In this document: positions 583 to 34,414 of the stretch, piece after piece
Position numbering within the stretch: the first letter of the stretch is position 1
How the letters are laid out: each line of letters begins with the position of its first letter
NCBI GenBank assembly: GCA_945882015.1
Contig: CAMCVM010000002.1
Location: 51,116 to 115,115, forward strand
Length of the DNA stretch: 64,000 bases
Reading direction: 5' to 3'
Origin: a candidate division TM6 bacterium GW2011_GWF2_32_72
GTDB lineage: Bacteria > Babelota > Babeliae > Babelales > CAIQNR01
Notes under the pieces: model-generated
What the model saw: only the letters and a program-made list of their open reading frames with translations
The model's database searches: none
What the model was told of the DNA's origin: nothing
Program-made: the position numbers and the translations under genes

Positions 583-592
583 AGGAACTGTT

Positions 593-2872: not shown

Positions 2873-2886
2873 ATAAGGATTTATTC

Positions 2887-10395: not shown

Positions 10396-10400
10396 AAAAC

Positions 10401-11858: not shown

Positions 11859-11876
11859 TTAAAAAAAGGATTGATA

Positions 11877-13007
11877 ATGAAAGTTAAATTACTGTTTTTG
11901 CTGTCTATAGCTACCACTGAACTGTTTTCAGCTAGTGCTGGCCCCTCCGCTATAACTCGTGGGCGTGCCGACTATATTGCCCAATTTTTTTGTAACGATC
12001 ACCATGATCAAATGCCAGAACGACATCTAGTTTATTCGGGCGATAGACTTCTTGTGGCTGATCGCAGAGCTGTAAATGGGCCCGCAATTACACAAGTTAC
12101 TCATGAATTAAAAGTTATTCCTGAAACAAATTTTGACAGCAGAAGCCCCTTTAAGTCAAGATGGCCTGTTACTTCATTATTAAGCACGCAAGGCGGCAGT
12201 CTGATTATTGGCGCTACAGATTACACATCAGGACGCGGTACTTTAACTATTGTTCCTTCTTGGGCGGTAAAAGAAGAATTAACAAGGTATCTAGGTATTG
12301 AGTACTCACAAAGAGACCCTGGTGGCCGTCCAACTTGTAAACCCGCAACAGCTGGTGACCTATTTGCGTTTGGACACCGAACAGGAGTTAGATTACATAG
12401 AATCGATAATGGCACATGGGCAAACGATCAAAGTATAGATGAAAGTAAAGAGGGCCGTAAAAAGAAAGATTTTGAATGGGGCCTGGGTCATCTGACAGCG
12501 ACTGGAATAGATTCGTTAAGTTTTGCTGCCGATGATAATACTTGTTTAGCTGCATCTTTTAAACCAGAGGGGGAACCTAGTGTTGTAAAGGTTTTTGATT
12601 TAGCACAATCAAAAATTCAATCGACTATTGAACCTGCTGACGCAGAAAATTTATCAAGCAAAAAAAAAGCAATATTTTCTCCTGAAGATCCAAATCTTTT
12701 AGCGGTTGTTGGGGCTGCTGCTGTAAACTTGTATGATCTAAGAAACAAGAAAAAGGAACCAGTCACAGCAATTGAATTTCATACTCATCAGGAACCAACT
12801 TCTTGCAGTTGGGATAGCGAAACAAGACTCATTGTAACTTCAAGCCCCAATCAAGTAATGGTAATTAATCCAAAAACTACGGATTATTTCTGTTTTGAAT
12901 TACTCAAAGACAACCATCCTAACGCAACAGCACTTGTACCCAAGGATGGAAAAGGTGATCTTTTCGTGGCAGGAACTCAACACCTTCATAGAATAGAATT
13001 ACCCTGA
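11877..13007 (+). CDS. secreted hypothetical protein, possibly a divergent beta-propeller
   Basis: ATG 11877 is preceded by an aaagga SD (track ORF uses TTG 11871). Signal peptide MKVKLLFLLSIATTELFSASAG. Repeated beta-strand-like ends (VVKVFDL, AVNLYDL, VMVINP) occur, but there are no clean WD motifs. Confidence 0.5.
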   Translation: MKVKLLFLLSIATTELFSASAGPSAITRGRADYIAQFFCNDHHDQMPERHLVYSGDRLLVADRRAVNGPAITQVTHELKVIPETNFDSRSPFKSRWPVTSLLSTQGGSLIIGATDYTSGRGTLTIVPSWAVKEELTRYLGIEYSQRDPGGRPTCKPATAGDLFAFGHRTGVRLHRIDNGTWANDQSIDESKEGRKKKDFEWGLGHLTATGIDSLSFAADDNTCLAASFKPEGEPSVVKVFDLAQSKIQSTIEPADAENLSSKKKAIFSPEDPNLLAVVGAAAVNLYDLRNKKKEPVTAIEFHTHQEPTSCSWDSETRLIVTSSPNQVMVINPKTTDYFCFELLKDNHPNATALVPKDGKGDLFVAGTQHLHRIELP

Positions 13008-13153: not shown

Positions 13154-14122
13154 ATGAAAAAGTTTTATCTACTCTTTTGTATTAATATTGTCACTGTTGC
13201 TCTTTCTGCTGCCGAAGCGGCTTCAGCATCTACCCTGCCTGATGGCGTTGCATTAACGAAAACCGTTCCACAACTTGCTTATTGCCCAGTTGGATACTTT
13301 GTTCTTCTGTCAGCAGAAAATGCAGCTTGGCAGGCAAACAAGAGTGCGTCCTTACACAGTAATTGCTGGAAAATGGCCAAACCCATGATTTTTGATACTG
13401 ACTATTTAGGTATTTTTGTTCCAAACGCACTTCAAGACCCTAATAACTTGCGTTACTTAAACCAGCCGATAGAATACGTAGCAGAAATGGTTATAAAACG
13501 TAACGGTCACAAGCTACCTACAGACCCTGAAGCACTACTTGCTATGGAGCTTAAAACCACATTAACAACAAAAATGACGATGAAAGTAGGACCTTTACCC
13601 CTTTGCTACGCAATACAATGCCTTGTAAATACTTGCTGGACAGAACCAGCATACAATGTCCCAGAACGAAGAGGCGCTGTCATAGAAACATTTACTACTC
13701 TTGCTCAAAACACTTACCCTAACTTACTTGCGCACAAGCCAGTCAAAGGTAAAACTTGTTATGGCCCTTTAGGCTTTGCTCTTAACAAAATTTTTGAAAA
13801 AAAAGGAACAGACAAACCAAATCTTCCTGATATCCTTATTGATATGATAAAAATTCTTATCAGACATCATCCTTTGGTTGGCAAAGTTCAAGGAGACCCT
13901 GAAAAATCAGAATCTGCACTCGTATCACCTTTTGATTTGTTAACTGAGCTGCACCTTCAGCACGATAAAAGCACTATTACTCATCAAATAGCCGCTCTTT
14001 TTTTAGTACATAATATGCAAGTTTTTAGCCCATTTGAAGATAAAAGGTTATTTGAAACCAAAAATAAACTTACTGGCCTTGCCGAAGTAAAAGCATGGAT
14101 AGAAAAGTATAAATCTTGTTGA
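13154..14122 (+). CDS. secreted hypothetical protein (322 aa)
   Basis: aaaaaggaag SD upstream. Signal peptide MKKFYLLFCINIVTVALSAAEAASA. No family motif recognised. Confidence 0.55.
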   Translation: MKKFYLLFCINIVTVALSAAEAASASTLPDGVALTKTVPQLAYCPVGYFVLLSAENAAWQANKSASLHSNCWKMAKPMIFDTDYLGIFVPNALQDPNNLRYLNQPIEYVAEMVIKRNGHKLPTDPEALLAMELKTTLTTKMTMKVGPLPLCYAIQCLVNTCWTEPAYNVPERRGAVIETFTTLAQNTYPNLLAHKPVKGKTCYGPLGFALNKIFEKKGTDKPNLPDILIDMIKILIRHHPLVGKVQGDPEKSESALVSPFDLLTELHLQHDKSTITHQIAALFLVHNMQVFSPFEDKRLFETKNKLTGLAEVKAWIEKYKSC

Positions 14123-14196: not shown

Positions 14197-16302
14197 ATGA
14201 AACCAGAACATAAAGAACTTTTACAAAAATACACCCAAAATTTGACCGACCTTGCACGAAAAAGAAAACTTGACCCAGTAATTGGCCGACATGAAGAAAT
14301 CCGCCGAGTGATTCAAATCCTTTCCCGCAGGACCAAAAATAATCCGGTACTGATTGGTCAGCCCGGGGTTGGTAAAACTGCAATTGTTGAAGGCATTGCC
14401 CAACGAATTGTCCACAATGATGTTCCAGAAAGTTTAGCCGGCAAAGAGATTTTTTCACTTGATTTAGGGCTTTTAGTTGCTGGTGCAAAATACCAAGGTG
14501 AGTTTGAAGAACGCATAAAAAATATTTTAAAAGCGGTCGAAGAAGCGCAAGATACGGTGATTCTTTTCATTGATGAACTGCATATGCTGGTTGGAGCTGG
14601 TTCAAGTGGCGGTGGTATGGATGCTTCTAACCTTTTAAAACCTGCCCTTGCTCGTGGTTTATTGCATTGTATTGGCGCAACCACACTAAAAGAATATAAA
14701 CAGTACATTGAAAAAGATGCGGCACTTGAGCGTCGTTTTCAACCAGTGTATGTTGAAGAACCAACACCTGAAGACGCACTTTCTATCTTGAGAGGACTTA
14801 AAGAACGATACGAACTGCATCACGGTATAAAAATTAAAGACCAGGCACTGGTTAATGCGGTTGAACTTTCAACCAAAAATATTCCTGATCGGTTTTTACC
14901 TGACAAAGCAATTGATTTGATAGATGAAGCTGCATCAATGGTAAGAATGTCTATTGACTCACAACCGGAAGCACTTGATAAATTAGAACGTAAAGTCAGC
15001 CAACTTGAAATTGAAAAAGTTGCATTAGCTAAAGAAAAAGATGAACTTTCTAAAAGACGTTTAATAGAACTTGAAAAAGAGTTAATCGATTTAAAAGAAC
15101 AACAAAGTCAGTTGTTCAATCAATGGAAAGCCGAAAAAGCACCGCTTGAAAAAATTAACAAACTCAAAGAAGGAATCGATGCGGCACATTACCAATATAC
15201 CTTAGCAGAACGTGCTGGTGACTTTGCAAAAGCTTCAGAAATTAAATATGGCAAATTGATGCAACTAGAAAAACAACTTGAAGAACAGCAGACTGCTTTG
15301 CAGAATTTAAAAACATCATTAGTCAAACAAGAAGTTGATGAGCATGATATTGCAGCAGTTCTTGCTCGTTGGACAAAAATCCCCACTGAAAAATTGCAGC
15401 AAAGTGAACATGAAAAACTGTTACATATGCAGGCTCATTTAGAAGAAAAAGTAGTAGGACAAAAGCAAGCAGTTGAAAAAGTAACGCAAGCTATTCAAAT
15501 GCATCGAGCTGGTCTGACCGACCCTAATCGACCAATCGGTTCATTTATCTTTTTAGGGCCGACAGGGGTTGGTAAAACTGAAGTGGCAAAATCACTTGCT
15601 GATTTTTTATTTAATGACCCACGCAAAATGATCCGAATTGATATGTCTGAATATATGGAAAAACATGCGGTCGCTCGATTGATTGGAGCCCCTCCGGGGT
15701 ACATTGGTTATGAGCAAGGTGGCCAACTGACTGAAGAAGTTCGACGCAATCCGTATTCAGTTATCTTGTTTGATGAAATTGAAAAAGCACACCCTGATGT
15801 CTTTAATATCTTTTTACAAATCCTTGATGAAGGACATTTAACTGACGGACAAGGCAGAAAAATTTCGTTTAAAAACACGATTATTATTATGACCTGCAAT
15901 ATCGGAGCGCAACTAATTCTTGAAGCAAAAACTATTACTGAAAAAGTTAAAGCAGCAGTTGATGATTTACTTAAAAAAACCTTTAAACCTGAGTTTTTAA
16001 ATCGTATTGATGCAATTGTATTTTTTAATAAGTTACAAGAAACAGACATTCAAGCAATTACCAAAATTCAACTGGAAGAACTGACTAAAAGGTTGCGTAC
16101 TAAAAACATCAAGGTAACATTTGACAAAGGGGTTATTGAGCAATTAACCCACCTAGGGTATGACCCAGAATTTGGGGCACGCCCCTTAAAACGAACTATT
16201 CAAGAATATGTCACTGTCCCTTTGTCGCAAGCCCTGCTAAGTAATCCAGATAAAAAAGAATTTTCTGTTGATTTGAAAAATGATCAGTTTTTAATTACCT
16301 AA
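14197..16302 (+). CDS. clpB: ClpB disaggregase lacking the N-terminal domain (701 aa)
   Basis: Collinear with E. coli ClpB from about residue 155 ([61 protein letters not shown]). Both Walker A motifs are present ([16 protein letters not shown]), as are the coiled-coil M-domain and the GARPLKR sensor motif. Confidence 0.9.
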
Positions 16303-17629: not shown

Positions 17630-19174
17630 TTATTTATAAAGTAGTCGCTTATAAAGATCTACCACTGCTTCAATTGGCATTTTTTCAAGATCTTTCAAGG
17701 AAATCTTCTGTCGATCAAGCCGACGTCGCCACAGTACAAGGTCGTTATCCTGAGAAAGGGTAAACAGTGTTTTGCCGTCTTCTGAAAATACTGTACACTT
17801 TAGTGGGTCGTTAAGACCGACTGAATGGTGGCAATGAGTACACACTCCTGTCTGAACATCAGTTAATACAAACGCTCCCGACAGGAAAGAATTAATTAAT
17901 TGCTTTGCGTCTGGTGAAAATAGTAAAAAATATGAATCAGCAGACCTGCTGAAAGATTTAATAAACTCTTTTTTTTGATGATCCCATAACTCAACATTAC
18001 CATTTTCAAAAGCAATTGCTAAAAGTTCTCCATCACGAGATAAAGCAAAGTTCTTTACAGGTTCAGGTAGCATCAAATCACCGATAAATTGACTGTTTTG
18101 AGTATTCCATAAACTGATTTTAAAAAAACTATCTCGTGCCGCTACTAAGCATTTGGCAGGAGAAAAACAAATTTTATGATCACAAGTAACCGGTATAAAA
18201 AAATCGCTTACTCTTTTTGCTTCTTTGATGTCCCATATTGTTACTTGATTCCTGATAGAAGAAGTTACAACCCTTTCATCATCTACAAAATAAAAGACAC
18301 TTACTGGGGCATTATGGGGGAGTAGTACGTCAGGAGTGATTGATCCTGATTCGATTTCCCATAACTGCGCTTCATACTTGTTTGAAATTACTCCAAGTAG
18401 TCGCCCATTTGGAGAAAGTCTCATCGAATTTATGACCGAAGCATCCTTAGGATCCATGTAAACTTTTGCTCTATCAGATGGAGCTGCACAGTCTACAAGT
18501 GGGGCAGCAAAATCTTCTTTATTTTTTAAGACTTTAACTTCTCCATCGACTAAAACAACTATAATAGAGCTTCCATCAGGATTAGAGGCGATCGATTGAA
18601 CCTGTAATTGTTCCATCTTAGTCCTAGACCATCCTGCCGCCCAGCTATATAAATCTTCTGTTAGACGTTTTTTTAATAGTGGATTTTGGTTAATTGCTTT
18701 ATATGTTTCTTGATCTATTTCTTTTTCTATCTGCTGAGTAAACCTTTCAGCTAATTCATTATAAATAAGATTTAGTGATGAAAACGATTCCCCCCTCCAT
18801 GTCTGTGGTTTAATAATACAATATGCTGCTGTATTATACCAAAGTACTAAATTTCTTAAGTCCATATTATTTAATCTTTCTGGAAAACCTTCAGGATTTT
18901 GCGAAAACTTTGCTAATTCTTCTAATGCTAATCCATGAACTTTAGAACTAGGCAGTTCAATTGGGTTTTGATTATTAACAGAAGAACGTGAAGCTAAAGA
19001 AAAATCAAGCCGCTCAAAATGTTTTGCCGATACTCGAGGTAATCTGATTTCTTTTCCCCCTACATACACGGCAAGGAATTCCTCTTCTAATGATTCATTT
19101 TCTGCTGTATACAAAGCGAAAGTCCAAAAGAAAAATACAAACCCAGTGCGTACCATATGATTGATTGATTGCAT
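17630..19174 (-). CDS. WD40/beta-propeller protein with N-terminal hydrophobic leader and about 200-aa N-domain
   Basis: Leader VRTGFVFFFWTFALYTA. The C-terminal half has repeated propeller-blade endings (QVTIWDI, KISLWNT, NVELWDH, DLVLWRR). Confidence 0.65.
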   Translation of the reverse strand: MQSINHMVRTGFVFFFWTFALYTAENESLEEEFLAVYVGGKEIRLPRVSAKHFERLDFSLASRSSVNNQNPIELPSSKVHGLALEELAKFSQNPEGFPERLNNMDLRNLVLWYNTAAYCIIKPQTWRGESFSSLNLIYNELAERFTQQIEKEIDQETYKAINQNPLLKKRLTEDLYSWAAGWSRTKMEQLQVQSIASNPDGSSIIVVLVDGEVKVLKNKEDFAAPLVDCAAPSDRAKVYMDPKDASVINSMRLSPNGRLLGVISNKYEAQLWEIESGSITPDVLLPHNAPVSVFYFVDDERVVTSSIRNQVTIWDIKEAKRVSDFFIPVTCDHKICFSPAKCLVAARDSFFKISLWNTQNSQFIGDLMLPEPVKNFALSRDGELLAIAFENGNVELWDHQKKEFIKSFSRSADSYFLLFSPDAKQLINSFLSGAFVLTDVQTGVCTHCHHSVGLNDPLKCTVFSEDGKTLFTLSQDNDLVLWRRRLDRQKISLKDLEKMPIEAVVDLYKRLLYK

Positions 19175-20414: not shown

Positions 20415-21191
20415 ATGATTATATTAAAAGATCTTAAAAAACGTTTTTCCGAAGATGGCCCATTTATTACCGATGGTGTTAATCTTGAAATCCCTAGTGG
20501 GAAAATGACCTGCATTATCGGTCGATCTGGGGAAGGTAAATCTGTTTTACTCAAACAGATTATTGGTCTTATTCGCCCTACCTCTGGGCAAGTAATTATT
20601 GACGACATGGATATTACCAAACTTTCTGACAAAGAATTGACTAAAGTTTTTAAAAAAATGGGTTATGTGTTTCAATTTGCAGCTTTACTTGATTCGCTGA
20701 ATGTTCTTGAAAATGTGGGGCTTCCACTTTTGGAAAAAGGGATGGCACTTAAAGATGTAGAAGTGGTTGTCAGGCAAAAACTTGCACTGGTTGATCTTTC
20801 AGCCGATGAAACACTGCATAAATATCCATCAGAACTTTCTGGGGGTATGAAAAAGCGTGTTGGCCTTGCAAGAACTTTAGTAACCGACCCCGAAATTATT
20901 TTATACGACGAGCCAACAACAGGCCTTGACCCAATCACCACACGCATTATTCATGAACTGATGGCATCAATGCAAAAAAAGCTGAAAATTACTTCTGTTG
21001 TTGTTTCGCATGATCTTGAAATTTTTAAATATGTTGACAAGGTTGCGTTACTTGAAGACCGCAAGATCCAGTATTTTGGTGATGCTGCAACTATCTGGGA
21101 AAGCAACAACCCGTATGTCCACCAGTTTATCCATGGCCTTTCAGAAGGCCCAATCCAGACTGAGTTAATTCATAGCAAAGATAAATTTTAA
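20415..21191 (+). CDS. mlaF: MlaF-type ABC transporter ATPase
   Basis: Walker A GRSGEGKS, signature LSGGMKKRVGLARTL and Walker B ILYDEPTTGLD. It lies immediately downstream of mlaE. Confidence 0.85.
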   Translation: MIILKDLKKRFSEDGPFITDGVNLEIPSGKMTCIIGRSGEGKSVLLKQIIGLIRPTSGQVIIDDMDITKLSDKELTKVFKKMGYVFQFAALLDSLNVLENVGLPLLEKGMALKDVEVVVRQKLALVDLSADETLHKYPSELSGGMKKRVGLARTLVTDPEIILYDEPTTGLDPITTRIIHELMASMQKKLKITSVVVSHDLEIFKYVDKVALLEDRKIQYFGDAATIWESNNPYVHQFIHGLSEGPIQTELIHSKDKF

Positions 21192-21277: not shown

Positions 21278-24200
21278 TCAATTTCCTTTAGCTTTTCTTA
21301 ATTCGTTCAAGTTAGCTTGAACTACACTTTCAAATGATAGGACAGCTGCCTGTGCAACGTCAAAGTCTTTTTGCCCCTTTAAATGCTGAGCTTTATTAAG
21401 AAGTTCAATATAAACTCTTGTCAATTGAAGTAACTGTTGAAATTCAGGCACAGTTGTTGCAGCATTAATCATTTTCCTTAACAGCAATATACATGCAAGA
21501 AACTGACTGGATTGAGCCTTAAAATCGTGTTCCTCCAACTTTTCATGCGGAATATCAAAAAGAATGCTTAAGAGCTCTCCCCAATCGTTCAGTTTTTCAG
21601 TATAATCTTTGATTTGTTCAGATGTAAATTGAACCTTAGTGTCATCATTTATTACATCTTCAGTTGCTAATAAATCGCGTTGAAAATCTGTTAACCTTTT
21701 GCTAAAAAATTCTGGTCTTGTAATTAATAATTTATTCGATTCTTTAATGAGCGTTCTAATAAGCGTAAGTTTTTCCTGTATTTCAGCTTCTATTTTTGTG
21801 TCAGTTTCTTGCAATTGACCGCCGTGCCCCTGCTCAAGCCTAACTGCATTCTTCGATAAAAATTGCATTATATTCTCAAGTTGTTTTCTTGTTTCTTCAC
21901 GTAACGTTTTATCTGGCGCAGATAGAGATAGAGCAACGGCATTCAATAACATTGCGTAGTAAGAAGTAACACTCATTAAATCTAGTCTTTTTTGAAGTTC
22001 GGTTGTCCCGGCATGTGTTGTTATCATGGCACCTAATGGAACTGTCCACCAATCAAGTTCTTCAATAAGTTTGTTGCGTGTAGAATCACTACTCAAAAGT
22101 TCATACCCTTTAACAGAATCTATCAAAACAGCTTCTGCCCACCTTTTAAGTCCTTGGTTAAATTGATCAACCACTCTTTCAGCCTCACTTTTTGGTTGTT
22201 GCTGACCTTTTAAAGATTTTAATATGGATGCTGAATCTTGTGGCTTTAATTTTTCTTGAACTTTTACTTCAGGCTTTTTAACGGTCTCATTTCTGATTTG
22301 TAATGCTGCAGGTTCATCCGGCAAAAGACATTCTTCTTTAGCGTGACGCATCCGATATTCAAGTCTTTTTTTATCATTCTCTGCTAATGAGGATTGGTTT
22401 AGATAGTATTCAATTGCTGCTTCAATTCCCTCAAAATAACCTCCCTCTGTAACCATCTCGATTGCTTGACCAATTGCTTCTTCTTTCTTAGATTTATATG
22501 AACCTTTATTAAATAAGTTAGAATATGGACCTTTTATAATTGCTCTAGCAGCCACCATTCTTGTTTCAAAATCATTATTTTCATTTTGTTGCGCTCTAAA
22601 AAGCTTTTCTAACATATTGGCCGTTATACTTCCTGCTGTATTCATACGATTATATAGGTCATCGCCTAATATATTTTTCATTATCGTTTGAGGATCTTGT
22701 TTTTTTAATATTTTTGCTGGTTGTCCTTTTGCATTTCTTGCAGCTTGTCGATCTAAGTATTCTCTTTCTCTTCGATCTTTTTCTGCTTGCAAAGCAGCGG
22801 AATCGGCACTAACCTGGTCGCCTTTTTTCTTTGGTTTTTTGGCTTTAGAAGAATCTTGCCCTTGAAGATTTACTGGTTTTGGTTGCTCTAATTGTTGTGC
22901 CAATGTAACTTCTTCTAATCTTTGCGCTGTAGCTCTTGCTGAAGCTTCTCTGTCTGCTTGATCTTGTTGTGCTTTTTCTTGAGCTCTTTCAATTTCTTCT
23001 CTTGCTGCTTTATCTTTTTGTGCTTTTTCAAGTGCTTGTTGTTCTTGCTCTTTTTTTTCTCTTTTTTTTGCTTTTGCGGCTTTTTGCATCTCTCTTTTTC
23101 TTCTATTTCTTGCAGCATTTGAAAGTGTCCCAGGTCCCGTTTGTTGATCTTGCACTTGATCATCTGCTGATTCTTCATCACTTTCTACTGGTTGCTGCGT
23201 TGCGCTTTGCGCTTTCTGTGTTTCTTCTTGTGCTCTTCTTTTGGCCTCTTCTTGCTCCTGCTCTTGCATTTGACGAGCGAGAGCTTCATCTTGTTCTATT
23301 TGAAGCCTTTTTAATTCTTCTTTTTCTTCATACTCATCAATCATTAATTGTTCTAAAGCATCCTGCGCAAGCTCTTGTTGAGCTTGTGGAATATCAAAAG
23401 CTGTTACTCCCATTGCTATAAGATCTGCATCTGGTATTCCTTTAAGAATTAAATCTTTTAAATCATCTGGTGACATGGCCTGTTTAACAGGTCTCTGGGT
23501 AGCTCTGTTAGTAGAGGCTTGCGATTGTTCACCAGAAGGGTTCATTTCTTCTGAGGTCAAAAGTGATGGTCCTTGAAATTCAAATCGAGTTGAAGGTTTT
23601 TGTTGAGGTAAAGAAGCTGCTTGCTGCTGGGCGGCTTGGAGCAATTGCTCCATTTGCTGTCGCAGTTCAGCTACTGTTCTGCTCAAATCAGCTATTTTTG
23701 CTTCTTGTACTTGTATTTGTAGTGCAGTTGGTTGTTGTTCAGCTATCCTTGCTGCTTGCATTTCTAGCGCAGTTGGTTGTTGTTGAAAACCAAATGGCAA
23801 TAAAGGAAAGCCTGTTTGTTGCGGGTATAATCTACTATATCCAGAAACCGTTTGTGAGTTTTGCGGCACCAATGTTTTAGCAAAAAGAGTAGGTTGATTT
23901 TGAAGTGGCCTTACTGGACCTTGTCCTCTCTCTCTTCTTACTACCGAATTTTCTCTTTTCCTCTGGTCAGCCTTCTGTAAAAGCCGTAAAAGTTGTGGTC
24001 CTTGATTTGTTACAGCGGCTGCTTGAGTTGATCCTGTCGCTACAGTAAAAGGTTGACTTGAGGGACTCAGCAATTCTCTTAAGTTAAGAATATATTTATC
24101 TTTATTTTTTTCTGGTAGCAATTGACCATTTACTAGTGCAGCTCCTGAATAATAAGTTCCATTATCATTGAAAATAGATACGAAAGGAGAATTTTGTTCT

Positions 24201-24307
24201 ACAGAAAGCTTTATATAATCACTCAAAGTTGACTTTTGGTCTTCAAGAGTAACTTGCTTTGCTACAAGAGCAAGAATGTCATCTTTTGGACCTTTAAAAG
24301 TGAGCAA
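21278..24307 (-). CDS. large (1009 aa) charged, low-complexity hypothetical protein; the only available start is non-ATG (TTG)
   Basis: Long ORF with Q-rich and E/K/Q/A-rich coiled-coil-like regions and a helical C-terminal domain. There is no ATG near the 5' end. The frame continues upstream to an in-frame TAA (see feature 24347-24463). Confidence 0.6.
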   Translation of the reverse strand: MLTFKGPKDDILALVAKQVTLEDQKSTLSDYIKLSVEQNSPFVSIFNDNGTYYSGAALVNGQLLPEKNKDKYILNLRELLSPSSQPFTVATGSTQAAAVTNQGPQLLRLLQKADQRKRENSVVRRERGQGPVRPLQNQPTLFAKTLVPQNSQTVSGYSRLYPQQTGFPLLPFGFQQQPTALEMQAARIAEQQPTALQIQVQEAKIADLSRTVAELRQQMEQLLQAAQQQAASLPQQKPSTRFEFQGPSLLTSEEMNPSGEQSQASTNRATQRPVKQAMSPDDLKDLILKGIPDADLIAMGVTAFDIPQAQQELAQDALEQLMIDEYEEKEELKRLQIEQDEALARQMQEQEQEEAKRRAQEETQKAQSATQQPVESDEESADDQVQDQQTGPGTLSNAARNRRKREMQKAAKAKKREKKEQEQQALEKAQKDKAAREEIERAQEKAQQDQADREASARATAQRLEEVTLAQQLEQPKPVNLQGQDSSKAKKPKKKGDQVSADSAALQAEKDRREREYLDRQAARNAKGQPAKILKKQDPQTIMKNILGDDLYNRMNTAGSITANMLEKLFRAQQNENNDFETRMVAARAIIKGPYSNLFNKGSYKSKKEEAIGQAIEMVTEGGYFEGIEAAIEYYLNQSSLAENDKKRLEYRMRHAKEECLLPDEPAALQIRNETVKKPEVKVQEKLKPQDSASILKSLKGQQQPKSEAERVVDQFNQGLKRWAEAVLIDSVKGYELLSSDSTRNKLIEELDWWTVPLGAMITTHAGTTELQKRLDLMSVTSYYAMLLNAVALSLSAPDKTLREETRKQLENIMQFLSKNAVRLEQGHGGQLQETDTKIEAEIQEKLTLIRTLIKESNKLLITRPEFFSKRLTDFQRDLLATEDVINDDTKVQFTSEQIKDYTEKLNDWGELLSILFDIPHEKLEEHDFKAQSSQFLACILLLRKMINAATTVPEFQQLLQLTRVYIELLNKAQHLKGQKDFDVAQAAVLSFESVVQANLNELRKAKGN

Positions 24308-24346
24308 TTGACTCTTATTTAAAATGTCTAATAAAGCTTCTTTTTC

Positions 24347-24463
24347 TTAATCCGTTAAGGGCTTCTGGTCAGTAATTGACTGACCTTGATCAGCAGAGGC
24401 ACCATAAATAACAACATGATTTAAGGTTAGTAAAGACAAAAGCAAAAAATATTTTTTGAGCAT
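24347..24463 (-). other. orphan signal-peptide mini-ORF (38 aa) in frame with the 1009-aa ORF, ended by a single TAA
   Basis: ATG 24461-24463 has a GGAG SD 7 nt upstream. It encodes MLKKYFLLLSLLTLNHVVIYGASADQGQSITDQKPLTD, then TAA (24347-24349). The same frame then reads EKEALLDILNKSQ and runs into the TTG at 24305-24307. Translated by hand. Confidence 0.6.
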
Positions 24464-24565
24464 AACAAACTCCATTTTAATTTAACGATATTTATTGCAA
24501 GTTTAAATCAAAAAAACTCAGTTTGTCAATAAAAAATAAAGTAAAAAGCTACTTAAGCTTAAAAA

Positions 24566-25096
24566 TTATAAATCTTTAGCTTCAAAATCTTTATACAAAA
24601 GACTTGGTTGAATGCCAGTGTTATTTTGATATTTATTACTACTATAAAGCCTATAAGCTCCTTCTATAGTGTGATAAAAAATCTGACAGATTTCAACGCC
24701 CGCATAAATGCGAATTGGCTGCACACAAAAAATTTCAAGTGTCCAAAAACCAGCAAATCCGACATCGCCAAACCCAGCGGTGATATGAATAAACAAACCT
24801 AATCTACCGATTGAAGAACGACCTTCTAACATAGGTACGCAATCATCGGTCTTGGTAAATTCAATTGTTCTGCCTAGATAGAGCGTATCTTTTTTTAAGA
24901 CTAATCCTTCTGGTGGAATTGTTAATTTTTGAACAGGATTTGGTGTTTTCATATCAAGCACAGGTGCATCATAAACCAACAACTCGTCGTGCAAGCGTAA
25001 ATTATAACTATTAGGCCCCAGCTGAGAATCATTAAATGGATCAATGATAAGGCTTGTTCCTAGTTTCTTTTTAATTTGTTGACCAGAAAGAATCAT
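24566..25096 (-). CDS. dcd: dCTP deaminase family protein
   Basis: NSYNLRLHDELLVY, LEGRSSIGRLGLFIHITAGFGDVGFAGFWTLEI. Confidence 0.85.
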   Translation of the reverse strand: MILSGQQIKKKLGTSLIIDPFNDSQLGPNSYNLRLHDELLVYDAPVLDMKTPNPVQKLTIPPEGLVLKKDTLYLGRTIEFTKTDDCVPMLEGRSSIGRLGLFIHITAGFGDVGFAGFWTLEIFCVQPIRIYAGVEICQIFYHTIEGAYRLYSSNKYQNNTGIQPSLLYKDFEAKDL

Positions 25097-26294: not shown

Positions 26295-26324
26295 GTTTCA
26301 ATGATTATTCAAAAGGAACTCTCT

Positions 26325-27440
26325 ATGCGCCATCCGCTATGGTTAGTTGACAGCACATTCCTTATTCTGTTTTTAGCTGCGGCAATATTTGTTTTTTTTT
26401 CGCAGCAAAAACTCCCTAAACGGATTACTTTACAATCAGAAACGATAAAGACTGCTCCTGTAAAAACTGCACCTTCAATTGATATTACTCAAATTTATGA
26501 AAACGATTTATTCAACACGTATCAAAAAACAGTGCAACCAATTTCACAACCAGATTACTCTCACCCAATGCCACAAGTTCCAACTCAAAGCACTGTAAGC
26601 GCTCCTGAACAAAAAAACCAACCTTTATTAGAGCCATTGAATATAAAACTTAAAGGGGTGATCGTTTTAAATGATGCAAGCAATAATATTGCAATTATTG
26701 CTGACACAAAAAGCTCGGAACAAAAAAATTATAAAGTTGGTGACCTTATAGAAGATGCACAATTAATTCGCATCTTATCCAATCGCATTATTTTAATCCG
26801 TTCAAACGGACAGCAAGAAGTTCTTTACCTTAACGAAAAAGATATTGAAAAATCCCCACTTGTACAAAGCGAAAAAGCTCATTGGGCGACTGTTGTCAAA
26901 AAAATACACGACGAACTCTTTTTGTTAGATCCTGAAATGTTCTGTCTTGTGGTACGCAATATTGCGCAATTAATTGATCTGCTTGACCTTACCACTTTAT
27001 ATCAATCTGGAAAAAGTATAGGGTGTCGCGTAGGCAATATCATGCCTGACTCATTAGGCGCCGCAATGGGAATTGAGCCGTTTGATGTGGTTACTTTAAT
27101 CGACACTCTACCAGTTAATGAAACTGAACAACGCCATACTGTTTATCAAAAACTATTAGAAAAAAAAGAAGGGCAAACGGTTGTTATAGAACTTCTGAGA
27201 AATAACGCTCCGCTTACTTTTACCTATCAATTGCATGACTTAAAAGACCCATTTGATGACACGTTACATGCTATGCAAAAAACAGAAAAGTTAGAAGGTA
27301 TTACTGATCAATCTTATACTCAAGACATACAAGAAGAACGTTTGAATCTTTTAAGAGAAAAATATAAATTTGCTCCAACAGCACAGGAAATAAAAATTCA
27401 ACAAAAAACCACTATGCTTAAAGAAGGAAAACAACAATGA
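26325..27440 (+). CDS. GspC-like protein (TM anchor + HR-like domain + PDZ-like domain); track ORF starts at 26301
   Basis: ATG 26325 is preceded by aaaaggaa. TM helix LWLVDSTFLILFLAAAIFVFF. HR/PilP-like beta segment LNIKLKGVIVLNDASNNIAIIADTKSSEQKNYKVGDLIEDAQLIRILSNRIILIRSNGQQEVLYL. PDZ-like segment GCRVGNIMPDSLGAAMGIEPFDVVTLID. Confidence 0.6.
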   Translation: MRHPLWLVDSTFLILFLAAAIFVFFSQQKLPKRITLQSETIKTAPVKTAPSIDITQIYENDLFNTYQKTVQPISQPDYSHPMPQVPTQSTVSAPEQKNQPLLEPLNIKLKGVIVLNDASNNIAIIADTKSSEQKNYKVGDLIEDAQLIRILSNRIILIRSNGQQEVLYLNEKDIEKSPLVQSEKAHWATVVKKIHDELFLLDPEMFCLVVRNIAQLIDLLDLTTLYQSGKSIGCRVGNIMPDSLGAAMGIEPFDVVTLIDTLPVNETEQRHTVYQKLLEKKEGQTVVIELLRNNAPLTFTYQLHDLKDPFDDTLHAMQKTEKLEGITDQSYTQDIQEERLNLLREKYKFAPTAQEIKIQQKTTMLKEGKQQ

Positions 27441-29821
27441 ACGCTAAACACTTGTTCGTCTTTTGTTCTTTCTTTCTTACCTTCTTATACAATCTTAAAG
27501 CTGACAATAGCCGAACTATTTTAAGTAACCTTCCTGGAAATATTGCTGCAAAAGATTTTGCTTTGCCTGCCGCTCCAGAAGAAAGAAAGCCGCTTGTTCT
27601 TGTTGACCCTGAAGACACAAAAGAGCAAGAGTTGCCGGTGGTTAACAAACCAACTCCTGCTGAAAAAAAAGAGCCGCTTGCAAAAAAAGAAGCTCATAAA
27701 AAACTGGTAGAAGAAGAGCAAAAATTTAGATTTTATTTTGAAGATGCAACACTTGCAAATGTGGTTGCGTATATTGAAACTCTTTTTAAAGTAACATTTT
27801 TACCTGATGATGCAATCACCCCGTTAATTGCAGGAGCGCTTCCGTTAAATGGCCATAAGATAACCTTTAAAACAAATAAACCGCTTTCTCGGCAAGAAGC
27901 TTGGGGAGTCTTTTTAAAGCTGCTTGACTTGGCCGGGCTTACCATTGTGCCAGGACCTACGCCACAATTTTATCGAATTACTTCTGTAACTGGAGCAAAT
28001 CAAGAACCGCTTCCCACCTACTTTGACACTCATTTAAAAGATATCCCTGATAATGCAGCAAAAATTCGATATATTTATTTTGTAAAAAATAATTCCCTTA
28101 CAACTATTCAAAATCTTGTAACAGCTTTAGCTAGTCAAACTGCAAAAATTCTTACTTTTCCTGATCTTAATGCGTTGATTATTATAGACAAAGGAAATAA
28201 TGTTCGATCGCTCATGAATATTATACAAGAACTTGATAAAGATACCCCAGAAGCAATGTCTGTTTTAAAGCTTAAAAAAACTGATGCAACAAAAGTTGCA
28301 GCGTTATATGGGTCTTTAATACAAACAGGGAGCGGACCAGGAGCTGCTCGCTCTGCCCAACAAAGAAAACAACCAGGGAATCTCTATTTTTCTACCGATG
28401 CCAGAATTATACCAGAACCTCGCACAAATCGGTTAATTCTGCTCGGACCCAAGAAAGATTTAGCAAAAATTGAAAATTTTATTATTAAACATATTGATAC
28501 AGATCTTGATATGCCGTATTCCCCTTTACATGTTTATCGGCTAGGAAATACCGATGCTGCAAACATTACTGCTATTTTACAGAAAGTAATTGGATTCGGA
28601 TCTTCAACCATAGCAGGAACTGTGGGCGGAACCCGTGACGGTCAAAAGTTCTTTAAATCAGGCAGTATTACTATTGTTCCAGAACCAGTAGGCAACTGGC
28701 TTATTATCCGAGCAGAAGACGATGATTTTGAAAAATTAGTAGAAATTATTAAGGTGCTTGATGTTGAACAGCCTCAAGTTTCTATTGAAGTGCTTATTGT
28801 TGATGTAGAGTCAACCAATAAAAAAGAATTAAGCGCTCAAATACGCAATAAATCTGATAGTTCATTAATTAAAAACACTAATTTTCAAAGCGCTCAGATA
28901 GGAGCTCCTCAAACAAACGCTGCTGATGGCTCACTGATTACAAACCTTATTTCTCTTGCAACAGGGGCTGCTAATGGAGCGGGAACAACTCTTTTAAGTA
29001 TTGGTGGAGCAGCTTCAGGAGGAGTTTGGGGAATATTTAAAATCTTAAAAACATATACTAATGCAAAAGTTGTTGAAAACCCTTTCTTGGTTGCAACTAA
29101 TAAATACCAAGCTTCGTTTGTTTATGGCAAAACTAGACGAGTATTGATGGCAACCGTTGGAGACGGCGGGCAAAGCTTTGGAGACAAATCTGCTTTACTT
29201 ACCCTAAAAGTTACGCCTCAAATTAATAGCGATGGGTTAATCACCATGACGATTGACTTAACCATTCAAGATTTTACGAATGAATCTTCCGAAAGCGCTA
29301 ATACAACTAATAATCAAATTACTACTTCGGTACAAATTAAAGACCAAGACGTATTAGCATTAGGCGGTATTGTTAAAAATAAAATTTCAACAATTGTAAC
29401 TAAGGTTCCTTTGTTAGGAGACATTCCACTTATTGGAAACCTGTTTAGAGGTAAAACAAAAGAACATATTGTTAGCAACTTGATGATCTTTCTTTCTCCG
29501 CGAATTATCATACCTTCAAAAAATTATCATGTTGAGCAATATACACATAATAAAACTGAAGAAATCAGAGAAACGCTGTCAACCATAACAACCGGAACAG
29601 CATCTCGTGATCCTGTTGATAAAATGTTCTTTGAATATGTAAATGAAAATGATTATCAAGCAACCTTTGATGATTTTATGGAACCTGAAATGAGCGATGC
29701 CCCTGAAAGAAAAAGAAATTCAAAAGGAACGCTAAAAGACCGTAAGAAAGAAAACAAAGAACGATCAGGTCAAAAAACTTCTAGCCAAAAGCGACTTGCA
29801 AGCAAAAGGAAGCAAAGATGA
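27437..29821 (+). CDS. gspD: GspD-type secretin 1 (794 aa)
   Basis: N0-like FRFYFEDATLANVVAYIETLF. Three secretin_N-like repeats (LNALIIIDKGNNVRSLMNIIQELD, RTNRLILLGPKKDLAKIENFI, GNWLIIRAEDDDFEKLVEIIKVLD). C-terminal signature VPLLGDIPLIGNLFRGKTK...LMIFLSPRII. The start overlaps the gspC-like stop by 4 nt. Confidence 0.85.
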   Translation: MNAKHLFVFCSFFLTFLYNLKADNSRTILSNLPGNIAAKDFALPAAPEERKPLVLVDPEDTKEQELPVVNKPTPAEKKEPLAKKEAHKKLVEEEQKFRFYFEDATLANVVAYIETLFKVTFLPDDAITPLIAGALPLNGHKITFKTNKPLSRQEAWGVFLKLLDLAGLTIVPGPTPQFYRITSVTGANQEPLPTYFDTHLKDIPDNAAKIRYIYFVKNNSLTTIQNLVTALASQTAKILTFPDLNALIIIDKGNNVRSLMNIIQELDKDTPEAMSVLKLKKTDATKVAALYGSLIQTGSGPGAARSAQQRKQPGNLYFSTDARIIPEPRTNRLILLGPKKDLAKIENFIIKHIDTDLDMPYSPLHVYRLGNTDAANITAILQKVIGFGSSTIAGTVGGTRDGQKFFKSGSITIVPEPVGNWLIIRAEDDDFEKLVEIIKVLDVEQPQVSIEVLIVDVESTNKKELSAQIRNKSDSSLIKNTNFQSAQIGAPQTNAADGSLITNLISLATGAANGAGTTLLSIGGAASGGVWGIFKILKTYTNAKVVENPFLVATNKYQASFVYGKTRRVLMATVGDGGQSFGDKSALLTLKVTPQINSDGLITMTIDLTIQDFTNESSESANTTNNQITTSVQIKDQDVLALGGIVKNKISTIVTKVPLLGDIPLIGNLFRGKTKEHIVSNLMIFLSPRIIIPSKNYHVEQYTHNKTEEIRETLSTITTGTASRDPVDKMFFEYVNENDYQATFDDFMEPEMSDAPERKRNSKGTLKDRKKENKERSGQKTSSQKRLASKRKQR

Positions 29822-31299
29822 TAAGAAACTTACTCACCCTTTTTGCGCCAGAACAACTACAGGGCAATTATTTAATCCCAACAACAGTGGTCAGTATTGT
29901 GATTGAGCATAACAAGCTCGTTGCAACGGTTGTTTTACTTAAAGGCACACAGGTCTTTATTCAAAAAATAATAACCGAGCCGCTTGAAGAAACTAAAACT
30001 ACCCTTTCTTTAAAAATTACTCAGGCATTAACAGCCCTTATTAAAAAAGTTGGACATTACGATAAAGTCATTACGTGCTTGCCCAGCAGCCTTGTCATGT
30101 TTAAACCGTTTTCATTTCCCTTTATCGACCCTGATAAAATTAAAATGGTACTTGGATATGAATTAGAAGGGCAGCTTCCGTTTTCAACACAAGATGCTTG
30201 TATCGATTTTATTATTACTCAAGAGCATATTGACCCTATAAAAGCAGACGTTATTATTGCTGCTGCCCAAAAAAAATTAATTGAAGAGTTTCTTAAGCCT
30301 TTTCATGATGCGGGCATAGCTGTTGCAAATCTTAGCGTCGATACTATTGGACTTTACAACTTGATTATGCGCAAGAAGGAAACGATTTCTTTAGCTAACA
30401 CGGTTATTATTGATTTACAGCATGACACAACTAAGCTACTTTTTTTTACTCACAACCAATTACGATACATTAGGACTTTGCGCTCTGGGTTAACAGTAAA
30501 AACAGATGAATTATGGCCAGCTTTAAACTTTACCCTTCAATCATGCATTAATGAACAAGCGGCGCAAGAACCATTAAAAATTATTCTGATTGATGCTCAT
30601 CAAGGTACGCAACTTGCTGCAATACAAGGCAATATTGAGTTACCTTCTGAAATTATAACTCTAGAAAAGCTTCTACAAGACAAAATCAATACACAAGGGT
30701 TAGTTAAAGTTGAATCTTTAAACTCATTGGCTATTGCTATCCCCTTTGAAAAAGGCCACAACTTTAGCTTACAAGAAACTATTACTCCTGAACAAAAACG
30801 ACTCATTGATTATCAAACCATTACAGCGCTGTTTTTTTCAATCAGTACAGTACTGCTTTTAGGAACGCATACCTTTTTACAAATTCGAAAACTTTCAAAT
30901 GAATTGACTGCTTCCCAAACCGAAGTTATGAACATTATTAAAGAAAACTTTCCTACTATTACGGCAAGAAACCGCCAAGATGCACTTAATTTTGCTGCCA
31001 AAGAAGTTCAAAATGAAGGAAAAATCTGGTCATCATTTGCATCAGAAACTCGTAAGTCATTTTTAGAATATTTTTATGATTTAAGTACAAAAATTGACAG
31101 AGAAACATTAGGGCTTAATTTAAAAAAGATGTTGATTAATAAAAATACCATCACCCTTGAAGGCAACGTAAGAAGCTTTGAAGCAGTAGAACAATTTGAA
31201 GCTCAATTGAAAGAAACAAAGCTCTTTAGCAATGTTCCTGATCTACAAAAAGTAGAGTTTTCAGTTGTTCTTCCTCTTGATAGCCAAGGAGTTCTTTAA
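29818..31299 (+). CDS. PilM-like / PilN-like fusion protein (GspL-like topology)
   Basis: The N-half resembles PilM (LPSSLVMFKPFSFPFIDPDKIKMVLGYELEGQLPFSTQDACIDFII; AAAQKKLIEEFLKPFHDAGIAVANLSVDTIGLYNL). One TM helix (ITALFFSISTVLLLGTHTFLQI). A periplasmic tail of about 135 aa follows. The start overlaps the upstream stop by 4 nt. Confidence 0.55.
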   Translation: MIRNLLTLFAPEQLQGNYLIPTTVVSIVIEHNKLVATVVLLKGTQVFIQKIITEPLEETKTTLSLKITQALTALIKKVGHYDKVITCLPSSLVMFKPFSFPFIDPDKIKMVLGYELEGQLPFSTQDACIDFIITQEHIDPIKADVIIAAAQKKLIEEFLKPFHDAGIAVANLSVDTIGLYNLIMRKKETISLANTVIIDLQHDTTKLLFFTHNQLRYIRTLRSGLTVKTDELWPALNFTLQSCINEQAAQEPLKIILIDAHQGTQLAAIQGNIELPSEIITLEKLLQDKINTQGLVKVESLNSLAIAIPFEKGHNFSLQETITPEQKRLIDYQTITALFFSISTVLLLGTHTFLQIRKLSNELTASQTEVMNIIKENFPTITARNRQDALNFAAKEVQNEGKIWSSFASETRKSFLEYFYDLSTKIDRETLGLNLKKMLINKNTITLEGNVRSFEAVEQFEAQLKETKLFSNVPDLQKVEFSVVLPLDSQGVL

Positions 31300-31301
31300 T
31301 T

Positions 31302-31862
31302 ATGACTTTACTCAACCAATTACAACAGATTTTTCTTACCCAGGACATTAAAGAATTTTACAAAAGAATCGGTCTTTACGCTGGAGTTATTGTTTTTTTA
31401 ATAGTTGGAACGCTCTATTATTACTACACCAGAACAAGCGATTTACATGCTGCTTTAAAAAAGGTTAATAAAGACAGACAAGAAGTACAACATCTACTGA
31501 AAAAATACAAAAGAGTCCTTGAGCAAAAAGAGGCCGTTAACACAATGCTTGAAGAAGAAAAAAACTTTAAGATACAAAGCTTTTTTGATAGCGTAGTGCA
31601 GCAACATCAACTCAAGGGCCAACAAAAACAAGATGCGCAGGTATCTGAAGAAGTATTATACAAACGATACACAGAAATAAAGCTAACCGCACAATTTAAA
31701 CAAATTAATACCCAAGAACTCTCTGAATTATTACGTTCTATAGAAGAAAAAAAACGAGTCTATATTAAAGATTTAGCAATCACTAAAACAAAAGGCGCTG
31801 CACTGGATATTTCATTAACAATTGCTACGCTTAAATCACAAAGCGAAACAAAAGCTCGATAA
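31302..31862 (+). CDS. bitopic PilO/GspM-like protein (186 aa)
   Basis: Single N-terminal TM helix (IGLYAGVIVFLIVGTLYYYY), then a coiled coil and a small C-terminal domain. The assignment rests on size, topology and operon position only. Confidence 0.4.
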   Translation: MTLLNQLQQIFLTQDIKEFYKRIGLYAGVIVFLIVGTLYYYYTRTSDLHAALKKVNKDRQEVQHLLKKYKRVLEQKEAVNTMLEEEKNFKIQSFFDSVVQQHQLKGQQKQDAQVSEEVLYKRYTEIKLTAQFKQINTQELSELLRSIEEKKRVYIKDLAITKTKGAALDISLTIATLKSQSETKAR

Positions 31863-31873
31863 AAAGGTTTATC

Positions 31874-34414
31874 ATGATTAAAAATTTATTTTTTCTTCTT
31901 TTAATAGGTACAACCTTTCATGCTCAAACAGATCAAAAGCAGACGCAAACAGAAACTAAAAAGGTCTGGTTTCGTTACAAAGAAGAACCGCTGATCAATA
32001 TCGTTAACGACCTTGCTGCGCAACGCAATGTAAATATTATGCCTCCTCAAGGAGCTGCCGCCTTAACTTCAAAAGTGACTTTTGAAGTTTCTCATAAAAT
32101 TTCTCTTGAACGAGCATGGCAATATATGATTACTATGCTCGATATTGCTGGATTTGCTATTGTTCCTAATACTCCGCTCAGTTTTATTGTCAAAAAAGAC
32201 CAGTCAGTTCATAAAGAAATTTTACCACTCTATATTGATGTTGCTCCACAAAATTTACCTGAAACCGATTTAACTATTCGTTATTTGCGATATTTAACTA
32301 ATCTACAAGTTCCAAATAGTACTGATGGAGCAAGTTCACCCCTTTCAATGCTCCTTTCTCAATTGCTTTCACCAGGGGCTTCTATTATTTACGAACCGCA
32401 ACTGAATGCTGTGTTAATCACTGATTCTGCACGCACCATTAAATCTGTGATGACTATTATTGATGAGTTGTCTGCTTGCATGCCGTTACAGAAACCTGCC
32501 TTTATCACCTTGAAACACACAACCGCCAGCCAAGTAAAAACGCTATTTGATCAACTGATTCCTGGACAAGCAACTAATGCTGCTCCTGCTGGGGCACAAG
32601 CTCAAATAGGAGCAAACAATTCTTCTTACTTTGCAAGAGGGACCAAGATAGTAGCTGACAATGCACACAATGTATTAATCTTACTAGGCAAACAAGAAGA
32701 CATAGACAAAATTGATGATTTTATTAAACAGTATATCGATCTTCCGCCAGAAAAAGGCCGCTCAATCTTACATTTTTACGATCTACAACACCTTGATTCT
32801 GTCTCTTTTGCTCCTGTTTTAACACAAATTGTGCAAGAACAAAGCTCTAGCCAAGCAGCGGGAGGATACGATGGTTATGGCTCAGGGACGGATCAATCAA
32901 CAAGTTCAAACGAAACCAGTATCTATAAAAAATTTCAAGGGGTTATTATTACCTCAGAAGGTTCTGTTACCGGAACAGGGGACTCTGGAAGTTCTTTAAC
33001 AGGAGGCTCACAGACAGGTAATCGTTTAATTATAGCTGCACTCAAAGACGATTGGATAAGAATAGAGGCGCTTATTAAAGAGCTTGATAAACCACAACTA
33101 CAAGTAGTCATTCATGGACTTATTGTTGATCTTTCTTACACAGGTCTTAAAAACTTTTCCCATCAAATTAGAAATGCTCAAAATCTTTTTCTAAAAAATG
33201 TAAATTGGCAAACAGGACATCTTGGTGGAATTGAAAATGGGACTACTTCAAGCAGCACAATCCCAACCGATGCTGCTGCGTTAAGAACAAACTTATTACC
33301 TCTCACGAGCACCAACAGCGCTGGCAATATGGCTAATAATGCTGAAAAGGGGACCTTTATTTTGTCATTTAAAGATGCCGCTTCTAATGGTATTTTTTTA
33401 ATTTCAAGCATGCTTAATCAGCAAACCGATAGTAAAATTTTATCTCGTCCTTTTTTAACTACCATGAATAATAAAGAGGTCTATTTTAAAGATTCAGAAA
33501 ACCGAAGAATTGATGGATCTGCTTCAGGACTTTCTGGAGTGCAAGTAGTTAACCAAGAAGATGTAGAAGCGAGCATCGATTTAAAAATATTGCCTCGCAT
33601 CAATCAAAACGGAATCATTAATTTAAGTATCACCATTAATGTTAATGAATTTGAAACCACAGGAAGTAGTACTCGAACAAATCGTACTCTTGTTACTAAT
33701 GTAAATCTTTATGATAAAGATATCCTAGTGCTTGGCGGATTAACTAAAACAAAATTAGAATACACTTGCAATAAAACTCCTCTATTGGGAGATATTCCAC
33801 TTCTTGGTAATCTTTTTAGGGGAAAATCAAAAACGGTAACCAAAAGCCATTTAATGATATTCTTGCGCCCAGAAATTATCAAACCTGATGACAAAAAAAT
33901 TACTCATCGTTTTTTCAATCAAGCACAAACTATTTTAGAGCAAGGCGAAGATAATTTCAGTACCCTAAAAGATCCTGTTTCTCGATGGTTTTTTGGAGCA
34001 GACCCAAAAGGAACAAGTGCAAAAGTTATTGAAGATTTTCAAGGCGAAACTGAATCAGTCACGCAACATATTGAATTATTACACCGCAATAAAATTGCAA
34101 TGCCGGAAGAAACTGATCAAGATACGTTTAGGGTAAAACAGAGCGTTAACGATCAAAATGAGACAAAAGAACCGTTTGCACTTGAACAACCAAACCTTGA
34201 AAAGCCTTCTTTAAGAACTCCAATTGACGTTGAAACACAAGAAAAAAATGCACAAAAAGAACTCAAACGTCTTTTTGCATTAGAAGATGAAGTTGTTCAA
34301 AAAAAAGAAAAAGTGCAAAAAGTTCAAGAAGAAATACAAGCAGAAGAAAGCCTTAAAGCACTTTTTCAAGATCCAGGACTTAGTAAAGTAATGACTGAAG
34401 AAGAAGATCTTTAG
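31874..34414 (+). CDS. GspD-type secretin 2 (846 aa)
   Basis: Signal peptide. N0-like WFRYKEEPLINIVNDLAAQRNVNI. Secretin_N-like repeats (LNAVLITDSARTIKSVMTIIDELS, HNVLILLGKQEDIDKIDDFI, GNRLIIAALKDDWIRIEALIKELD). Signature TPLLGDIPLLGNLFRGKSK...LMIFLRPEII. A charged C-terminal extension of about 170 aa follows. Confidence 0.85.
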   Translation: MIKNLFFLLLIGTTFHAQTDQKQTQTETKKVWFRYKEEPLINIVNDLAAQRNVNIMPPQGAAALTSKVTFEVSHKISLERAWQYMITMLDIAGFAIVPNTPLSFIVKKDQSVHKEILPLYIDVAPQNLPETDLTIRYLRYLTNLQVPNSTDGASSPLSMLLSQLLSPGASIIYEPQLNAVLITDSARTIKSVMTIIDELSACMPLQKPAFITLKHTTASQVKTLFDQLIPGQATNAAPAGAQAQIGANNSSYFARGTKIVADNAHNVLILLGKQEDIDKIDDFIKQYIDLPPEKGRSILHFYDLQHLDSVSFAPVLTQIVQEQSSSQAAGGYDGYGSGTDQSTSSNETSIYKKFQGVIITSEGSVTGTGDSGSSLTGGSQTGNRLIIAALKDDWIRIEALIKELDKPQLQVVIHGLIVDLSYTGLKNFSHQIRNAQNLFLKNVNWQTGHLGGIENGTTSSSTIPTDAAALRTNLLPLTSTNSAGNMANNAEKGTFILSFKDAASNGIFLISSMLNQQTDSKILSRPFLTTMNNKEVYFKDSENRRIDGSASGLSGVQVVNQEDVEASIDLKILPRINQNGIINLSITINVNEFETTGSSTRTNRTLVTNVNLYDKDILVLGGLTKTKLEYTCNKTPLLGDIPLLGNLFRGKSKTVTKSHLMIFLRPEIIKPDDKKITHRFFNQAQTILEQGEDNFSTLKDPVSRWFFGADPKGTSAKVIEDFQGETESVTQHIELLHRNKIAMPEETDQDTFRVKQSVNDQNETKEPFALEQPNLEKPSLRTPIDVETQEKNAQKELKRLFALEDEVVQKKEKVQKVQEEIQAEESLKALFQDPGLSKVMTEEEDL

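Follow-up and report, generated by a model that had tools for sequence, protein, structure and literature searches.

A long minus-strand gene in the 64,000-nucleotide stretch analysed here (the window), which comes from an uncultured bacterium of intracellular type labelled Candidatus Babeliales (Dependentiae/TM6), is interrupted at codon 39 by an in-frame TAA, and comparison with its relatives suggests that this stop is a recent nonsense mutation. We consider it probable (about 0.78) that the window carries a null allele of a fast-evolving, dispensable gene for a Sec-exported protein, or an allele that can yield no more than a protein deprived of its export signal. For annotation this means that the public 38-aa and 1009-aa ORFs are two pieces of one disrupted gene. 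The positions of the gene, its parts and its neighbours are collected in Table 1.

Table 1. Positions in the window of the disrupted gene, its parts and its neighbours
Feature	Position	Strand	Basis or role
dcd (dCTP deaminase), upstream neighbour	24566..25096	-	synteny anchor
Sigma-70-like promoter candidate, TTGACA-18-TAAACT	24500..24529	-	10/12 consensus matches
Shine-Dalgarno GGAG	24470..24473	-	seen in the sequence, 6 nt before ATG 24463
Remnant 5' ORF, 38 codons + TAA	24347..24463	-	read from the sequence
Premature stop TAA, codon 39	24347..24349	-	DNA alignment and codon table
TTG, first in-frame start-capable codon past the stop	24305..24307	-	gene callers' start of the 1009-aa ORF
Downstream part, 1022 open codons + TGA	21278..24346	-	read from the sequence
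mlaF (ABC ATPase), downstream convergent neighbour	20415..21191	+	synteny anchor, selection baseline
Secretion/pilus cluster, whole	26301-34414	+	
gspC	26301-27440	+	
GspD-like secretins, two	27437-29821 and 31874-34414	+	
PilM-like gene	29818-31299	+	
Small ORF, no family match	31302-31862	+	

Reading of the minus strand confirmed the start codon proposed in the earlier note (ATG at 24463-24461) and the in-frame TAA that follows the signal-peptide ORF; the spacer between the Shine-Dalgarno sequence and the ATG is one nucleotide shorter than the 7 nt counted there. The duplex calculated between this start and a generic anti-Shine-Dalgarno tail has an energy of -5.9 kcal/mol, in line with the gene starts of the window (median of 32 ATG starts, -5.3 kcal/mol). 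A second ATG at 24475, four codons further upstream, has no Shine-Dalgarno sequence and is not chosen by gene callers in the relatives. Translation from ATG 24463 up to the TAA gives MLKKYFLLLSLLTLNHVVIYGASADQGQSITDQKPLTD, in which a Sec signal peptide of 24 residues (24463-24392) is followed by the first 14 residues of the mature protein. When we read the signal peptide directly from the sequence, the parts recognised by signal peptidase I were all present, namely MLKK, a 16-residue hydrophobic core (YFLLLSLLTLNHVVIY) and G-A-S-A↓D. The charged n-region, the hydrophobic h-region and the small residues at -3 and -1 are thereby accounted for, and the pattern is conserved in the relatives. After the TAA the frame reads EKEALLDILNKSQ and reaches the TTG at 24307, from which 1009 codons run in the same frame as the 5' ORF to a TGA at 21280-21278, as had been reported. 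The downstream part had also been described as free of ATG for several hundred codons; the first in-frame ATG in fact lies 196 codons after the stop (window 23761). Upstream of the gene, the TTGACA-18-TAAACT element is a candidate promoter; in the alignment, which includes the orthologous loci L003 and L004, it does not vary, and neither do the Shine-Dalgarno sequence and the start codon.

When the two pieces, joined by an X, were used as the query of a homologue search against 5.8 billion protein clusters, the search returned P0001, which is the 1009-aa piece itself, and four relatives. Two of the relatives cover 100% of the joined query, P0002 (1051 aa, 70% identity) and P0003 (1134 aa, 59% identity), and in each of them the same signal peptide stands at the start and leads in frame into the long protein. 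These two and locus L023 are uninterrupted versions that span the site, and the reading frames of the relatives extend over 1051-1134 aa from the shared signal peptide. Across the focal site P0002 and P0003 read ...PLTDQEKKALL... and ...PLKDQEKEKLL..., respectively. In the DNA alignment the window reads GAT TAA GAA, as do two contigs from its strain, and L003 and L004 read GAT CAA GAA. The focal codon is also CAA in L014, L023 and L024; it is AAA in L025 and ATA in L019, and TAA occurs in contigs of the window type only. The orthologue comparison proposed in the earlier note thus gave a clear outcome, with a sense codon at the site in every relative found (seven lineages). Orthologues that start downstream and lack the signal peptide, which the same note named as the observation that would speak against its view, were not encountered, the signal peptide being fused to the protein in the relatives, and this favours a mutation. 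The gene order is the same in the relatives (gspD-gspC-moxR, dcd, the gene, mlaF-mlaE-secG), and dcd adjoins the gene in the loci that extend upstream of it.

Since the relatives have a sense codon at the site, the same signal peptide and the same gene order, the stop is best read as a one-base nonsense mutation of a sense codon. This was one of the options raised earlier, and the CAA, AAA and ATA codons together with the unbroken frame of the relatives support it. Most parsimoniously, the change would have been CAA to TAA, a C to T transition. The ancestral codon could instead have been AAA (AAA to TAA), because L025, which has AAA, carries an identical 24-residue signal peptide. The arrangement of a signal peptide followed by a long frame would hardly be a matter of chance, since the orthologues fuse the same signal peptide in frame to the same long protein.

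The encoded protein is rich in Q, E, K and A and is largely helical or disordered, with a helical C-terminal domain. Profile searches of Pfam, PHROGs and PDB with the protein gave no match. The AF2 model, based on an alignment of five sequences, has a mean pLDDT of 50 and consists mostly of long helices and disorder, its C-terminal third being helical and better defined. A Foldseek comparison with the PDB returned nothing at E <= 1e-3, the only matches being generic helical-repeat and 14-3-3-like ones. When 1.84 billion representative proteins were searched with a profile, all eight hits were fragments or relatives of the same family. No relative was found when the GTDB species genomes were scanned with the family alignment, and a scan of JGI metagenomes added only the P0002 contig and L023. 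A second GTDB scan, with AspS, served to place the organism and gave 75-76% identity to two MAGs of pond and lake origin. The gene belongs to a tiny, lineage-specific orphan family.

This family differs from its neighbours in how it evolves. First, the pairwise dN/dS values of the gene are 0.9-1.0, including the value between the two intact orthologues, whereas those of five neighbouring genes are 0.01-0.09 in the comparisons with enough differences (0.03-0.05 for mlaF); moxR gave 0.29 between the window and L004, from only six differences. When the window was compared with L004, dN was 0-0.004 for the neighbours and 0.23 for this gene. Second, the window allele has a mosaic structure. In nt 0-740 and 1020-1320 it shares 92-97% identity with L004; over nt 1458-2140 its identity is 90-95% with L003 and only 55-61% with L004. 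The mosaic also shows against L003, L004 and L023 together, where segments share 90-97% identity with one relative and 55-60% with another. In addition, P0003, P0004 and P0005 contain an indel block of 50 residues (AALEAEVKERLINLSDEDYQ...) that is missing from the window allele and P0002. Third, the gene has about 190-220 nonsense sites, so that 40-55 stops would be expected under neutrality at a divergence of 0.2-0.25, and none is seen in the relatives, indicating that their frame is kept open under selection. As the relatives are free of stops, the single stop in the window departs from the family norm. Finally, no second stop is found in the 1022 codons after the lesion, and on this ground the neutral divergence since the lesion is at most roughly 1.6%.

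Another disruption of the gene is found in the P0005 lineage (L019-L021), where a 1-nt deletion (T7 to T6) at about nt 2750 causes a frameshift by which the final ~140 residues are lost. The T6 form was seen in three runs (SRR24319182, SRR24319153 and SRR24319154), and the frameshift disrupts the gene independently of the TAA. At this T7 tract no on/off polymorphism was observed, and the focal TAA, a substitution in non-repetitive sequence, does not have the form of a phase-variable switch. The 612-bp contig L025 may carry a further lesion, a 1-nt deletion after about codon 70. Two other candidates were set aside. The 908-aa protein P0004 was not accepted as a truncation, for L018 contains a 100-N scaffold gap at that place and L023 shows the lineage intact. 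The frameshift of P0030 on L024 was treated as a contig error, dcd also being split on L024.

Based on these observations, we propose that a single-base substitution struck codon 39 of a gene for a lineage-specific, Sec-exported protein of ~1050 aa. Ribosomes that start at ATG 24463 would make the signal peptide and 14 further residues and then terminate, and the 1022 downstream codons would be poorly translated or not translated at all, because an adequate ribosome-binding site is missing. Any downstream product would stay in the cytoplasm, since it would lack the export signal. That the downstream frame is still open would be explained solely by the shortness of the time available for further lesions. 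The gene seems to tolerate or even invite loss, as it is hypervariable, mosaic between strains and independently frameshifted in another lineage. The point to be counted against a null allele is that the downstream frame is perfectly intact and that the TAA contigs are identical, which fits both recency and continued use.

The window allele resembles the nonsense pseudogenes and null alleles of host-associated bacteria in several respects. A single base change has produced a stop near the 5' end; the promoter candidate, the ribosome-binding site and the remaining frame are intact and the orthologues are full length; and a second lineage has an independent frameshift. The lesion itself is ordinary, in a gene that is an uncharacterised orphan and whose expression is presumed lost. 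What is mildly interesting is only the hypervariability, the recombination and the repeated inactivation of the family. One could go further and regard the TAA, the T7 to T6 deletion of the P0005 lineage and possibly the L025 deletion as recurrent, independently arisen null or truncated alleles of a recombining secreted host-interaction protein of Dependentiae, the loss or silencing of which would itself be selected, for example as an escape from host recognition, and would not be neutral decay. We regard this as rather doubtful. As a variant of it, low-level reinitiation may keep a cytoplasmic form in use.

We then consider the possibility that the stop of the window allele is real and that the downstream part is nevertheless made and used, either by reinitiation about 39 nt further on, at TTG 24307, or by independent initiation. 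The product would be a 1009-aa protein without a signal peptide, either cytoplasmic or exported by another route, and we judge this improbable. The 1022 codons that remain open after the stop would suit such use, but an open frame is expected anyway if the divergence since the mutation is below ~1.6%, and the identity of the gene in all TAA contigs fits recency too. The TTG lies near the stop and was picked by the gene callers. Its AAGAG, 4 nt upstream, was already called weak in the earlier note, and our calculation agrees with this, as the duplex energy against a generic anti-Shine-Dalgarno tail is -2.4 kcal/mol, close to background (median -0.6 kcal/mol and lower quartile -2.8 kcal/mol at random positions). 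Both the AAGAG and the TTG fall inside a predicted local hairpin, and the first in-frame ATG past the stop, 196 codons on, has no Shine-Dalgarno sequence before it. There appears to be no credible restart site after the stop, and we regard the TTG start of the large ORF as a gene-calling artefact. None of the relatives starts there, the signal peptide being fused in frame in all of them. A product from TTG 24307 would lack the signal peptide together with the first 28 residues of the mature protein, a region that includes the conserved export signal. The deliberate production of a cytoplasmic form, which had been listed as an option, therefore finds no support, as there is no usable start past the stop and the relatives never start downstream.

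An error of sequencing, assembly or consensus calling, with CAA in the true genome, is a very unlikely source of the TAA. The stop differs from the relatives by a single base and the source record is a metagenome-assembled genome, both of which would be compatible with such an error. However, the same base is present in at least seven contigs from at least three data sets, possibly of one study or site, and from three differing pipelines (MEGAHIT-style k141 ENA, Logan and NCBI MAG), the sources including ENA ERZ27280309 and ERZ27280281, Logan ERR5863109 and a 311,774-bp contig of an NCBI MAG. In addition, the lesion is a substitution and not a homopolymer indel, and no intact (CAA) version of the window allele was found among the 5.8 billion protein clusters. 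Gene callers treat the 38-aa remnant as a gene of its own (P0006) on seven contigs, and the 1009-aa piece (P0001) is found on six. The TAA contigs are identical to the window across the whole gene, with differences confined to the neighbouring genes; there are no SNPs within the gene among them, and hence no selection signal after the mutation to measure. At the level of contigs, these results argue against the error that had been raised as an option, and the stop seems to belong to the population and not to one assembly.

We also observed differences in the neighbouring mlaF gene (window 20531-21095). All 20 differences among the window, L001 and L002 lie at third codon positions and are clustered, and most of the mlaF differences among the TAA contigs match alleles of other lineages. 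Either recombination tracts or a switch between strains in the course of assembly could account for them.

Programmed readthrough, a suppressor tRNA or a reassignment of TAA, by which the full-length exported protein would still be made, is scarcely credible in spite of a frame that runs perfectly across the stop and an intact promoter candidate, Shine-Dalgarno sequence and signal peptide, since TAA is the usual terminator in the window (34 of 42 large ORFs, eight of the 34 in the TAAG context of the focal stop), none of the seven other lineages has the stop, no stable RNA structure is predicted at it (the 131-nt fold, z = -0.69, is no better than shuffled sequences) and a tRNA scan of the 64-kb window gives only tRNA-Gly and no suppressor tRNA. 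A programmed stop would be conserved, and the lack of conservation of the focal TAA counts against recoding. UAA, which RF1 and RF2 both recognise, is the least leaky of the bacterial stops. An alternative code with TAA as a sense codon was rejected, because TAA ends most of the large ORFs and conserved genes (aspS, infB, clpB and gspD) read as normal long ORFs under table 11. The likeness to known programmed readthrough is limited to an in-frame stop followed by a long open frame; unlike in those systems, the stop here is unconserved, stands in an ordinary terminator context and has no stimulatory structure, so that none of the defining features that we tested was found. The readthrough raised in the earlier note is thus not supported.

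The gene lies beside a secretion/pilus cluster. Components of the type II secretion system (T2SS) and two gspD copies are reported to be common to TM6 genomes (Yeoh et al. 2015, PMC4776705). The genomic features of a T2SS substrate are present in our case, with a Sec signal peptide on the intact protein and gspC and two gspD-like genes in the window. Export of the intact protein by Sec, perhaps with release by the T2SS, is plausible, and the proximity to the T2SS genes is only suggestive of T2SS-dependent secretion.

Several other genes of the window were also noticed. There are three WD40 beta-propeller genes in tandem (9214-13007, plus strand) and a fourth at 17630-19174 (minus strand). WD40 repeats count among the eukaryote-like interaction domains that intracellular bacteria typically carry. 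The length of the fourth gene varies by lineage (513, 514 and 552 aa), a further call of 350 aa running off the fetched stretch. Eukaryote-like interaction domains have been described in TM6/Dependentiae (Yeoh et al. 2015, PMC4776705). The alignment of the ClpB ORF (14197-16302, plus strand) to the ClpB profile begins only at position 152, so that the N-terminal domain is missing; a stop lies upstream of the ORF, and no family match was obtained for the 322-aa ORF before it (13154-14122). UvrC (7941-9206, plus strand) is only 421 aa long, with the GIY-YIG and RNase-H-like endonuclease domains and without the usual C-terminal part. Two large ORFs of 781 and 1681 aa (527-7932, plus strand) have no match in Pfam or NCBIfam and may be further lineage-specific large proteins.

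Dependentiae are a poorly known phylum of protist parasites. When we compared the family with the hypervariable, recombining proteins that intracellular bacteria secrete or display on their surface, contingency loci or arms-race effectors for example, we found several likenesses, namely a Sec signal peptide, dN/dS of about 1 against the low values of the neighbours, mosaic alleles with a frame that is mostly open and occasionally inactivated, and a position beside a type II secretion cluster. There are also differences, in that the protein has no sequence, domain or fold match to a known effector or antigen family and the stop arose by point substitution, without a repeat-mediated switch; secretion and a host target are putative here. 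Based on the Sec signal peptide, the T2SS-adjacent position, the dN/dS of about 1, the mosaic alleles and the repeated inactivation, we suggest that the family may reasonably be considered a candidate host-interaction factor of Dependentiae, and we offer this as a lead.
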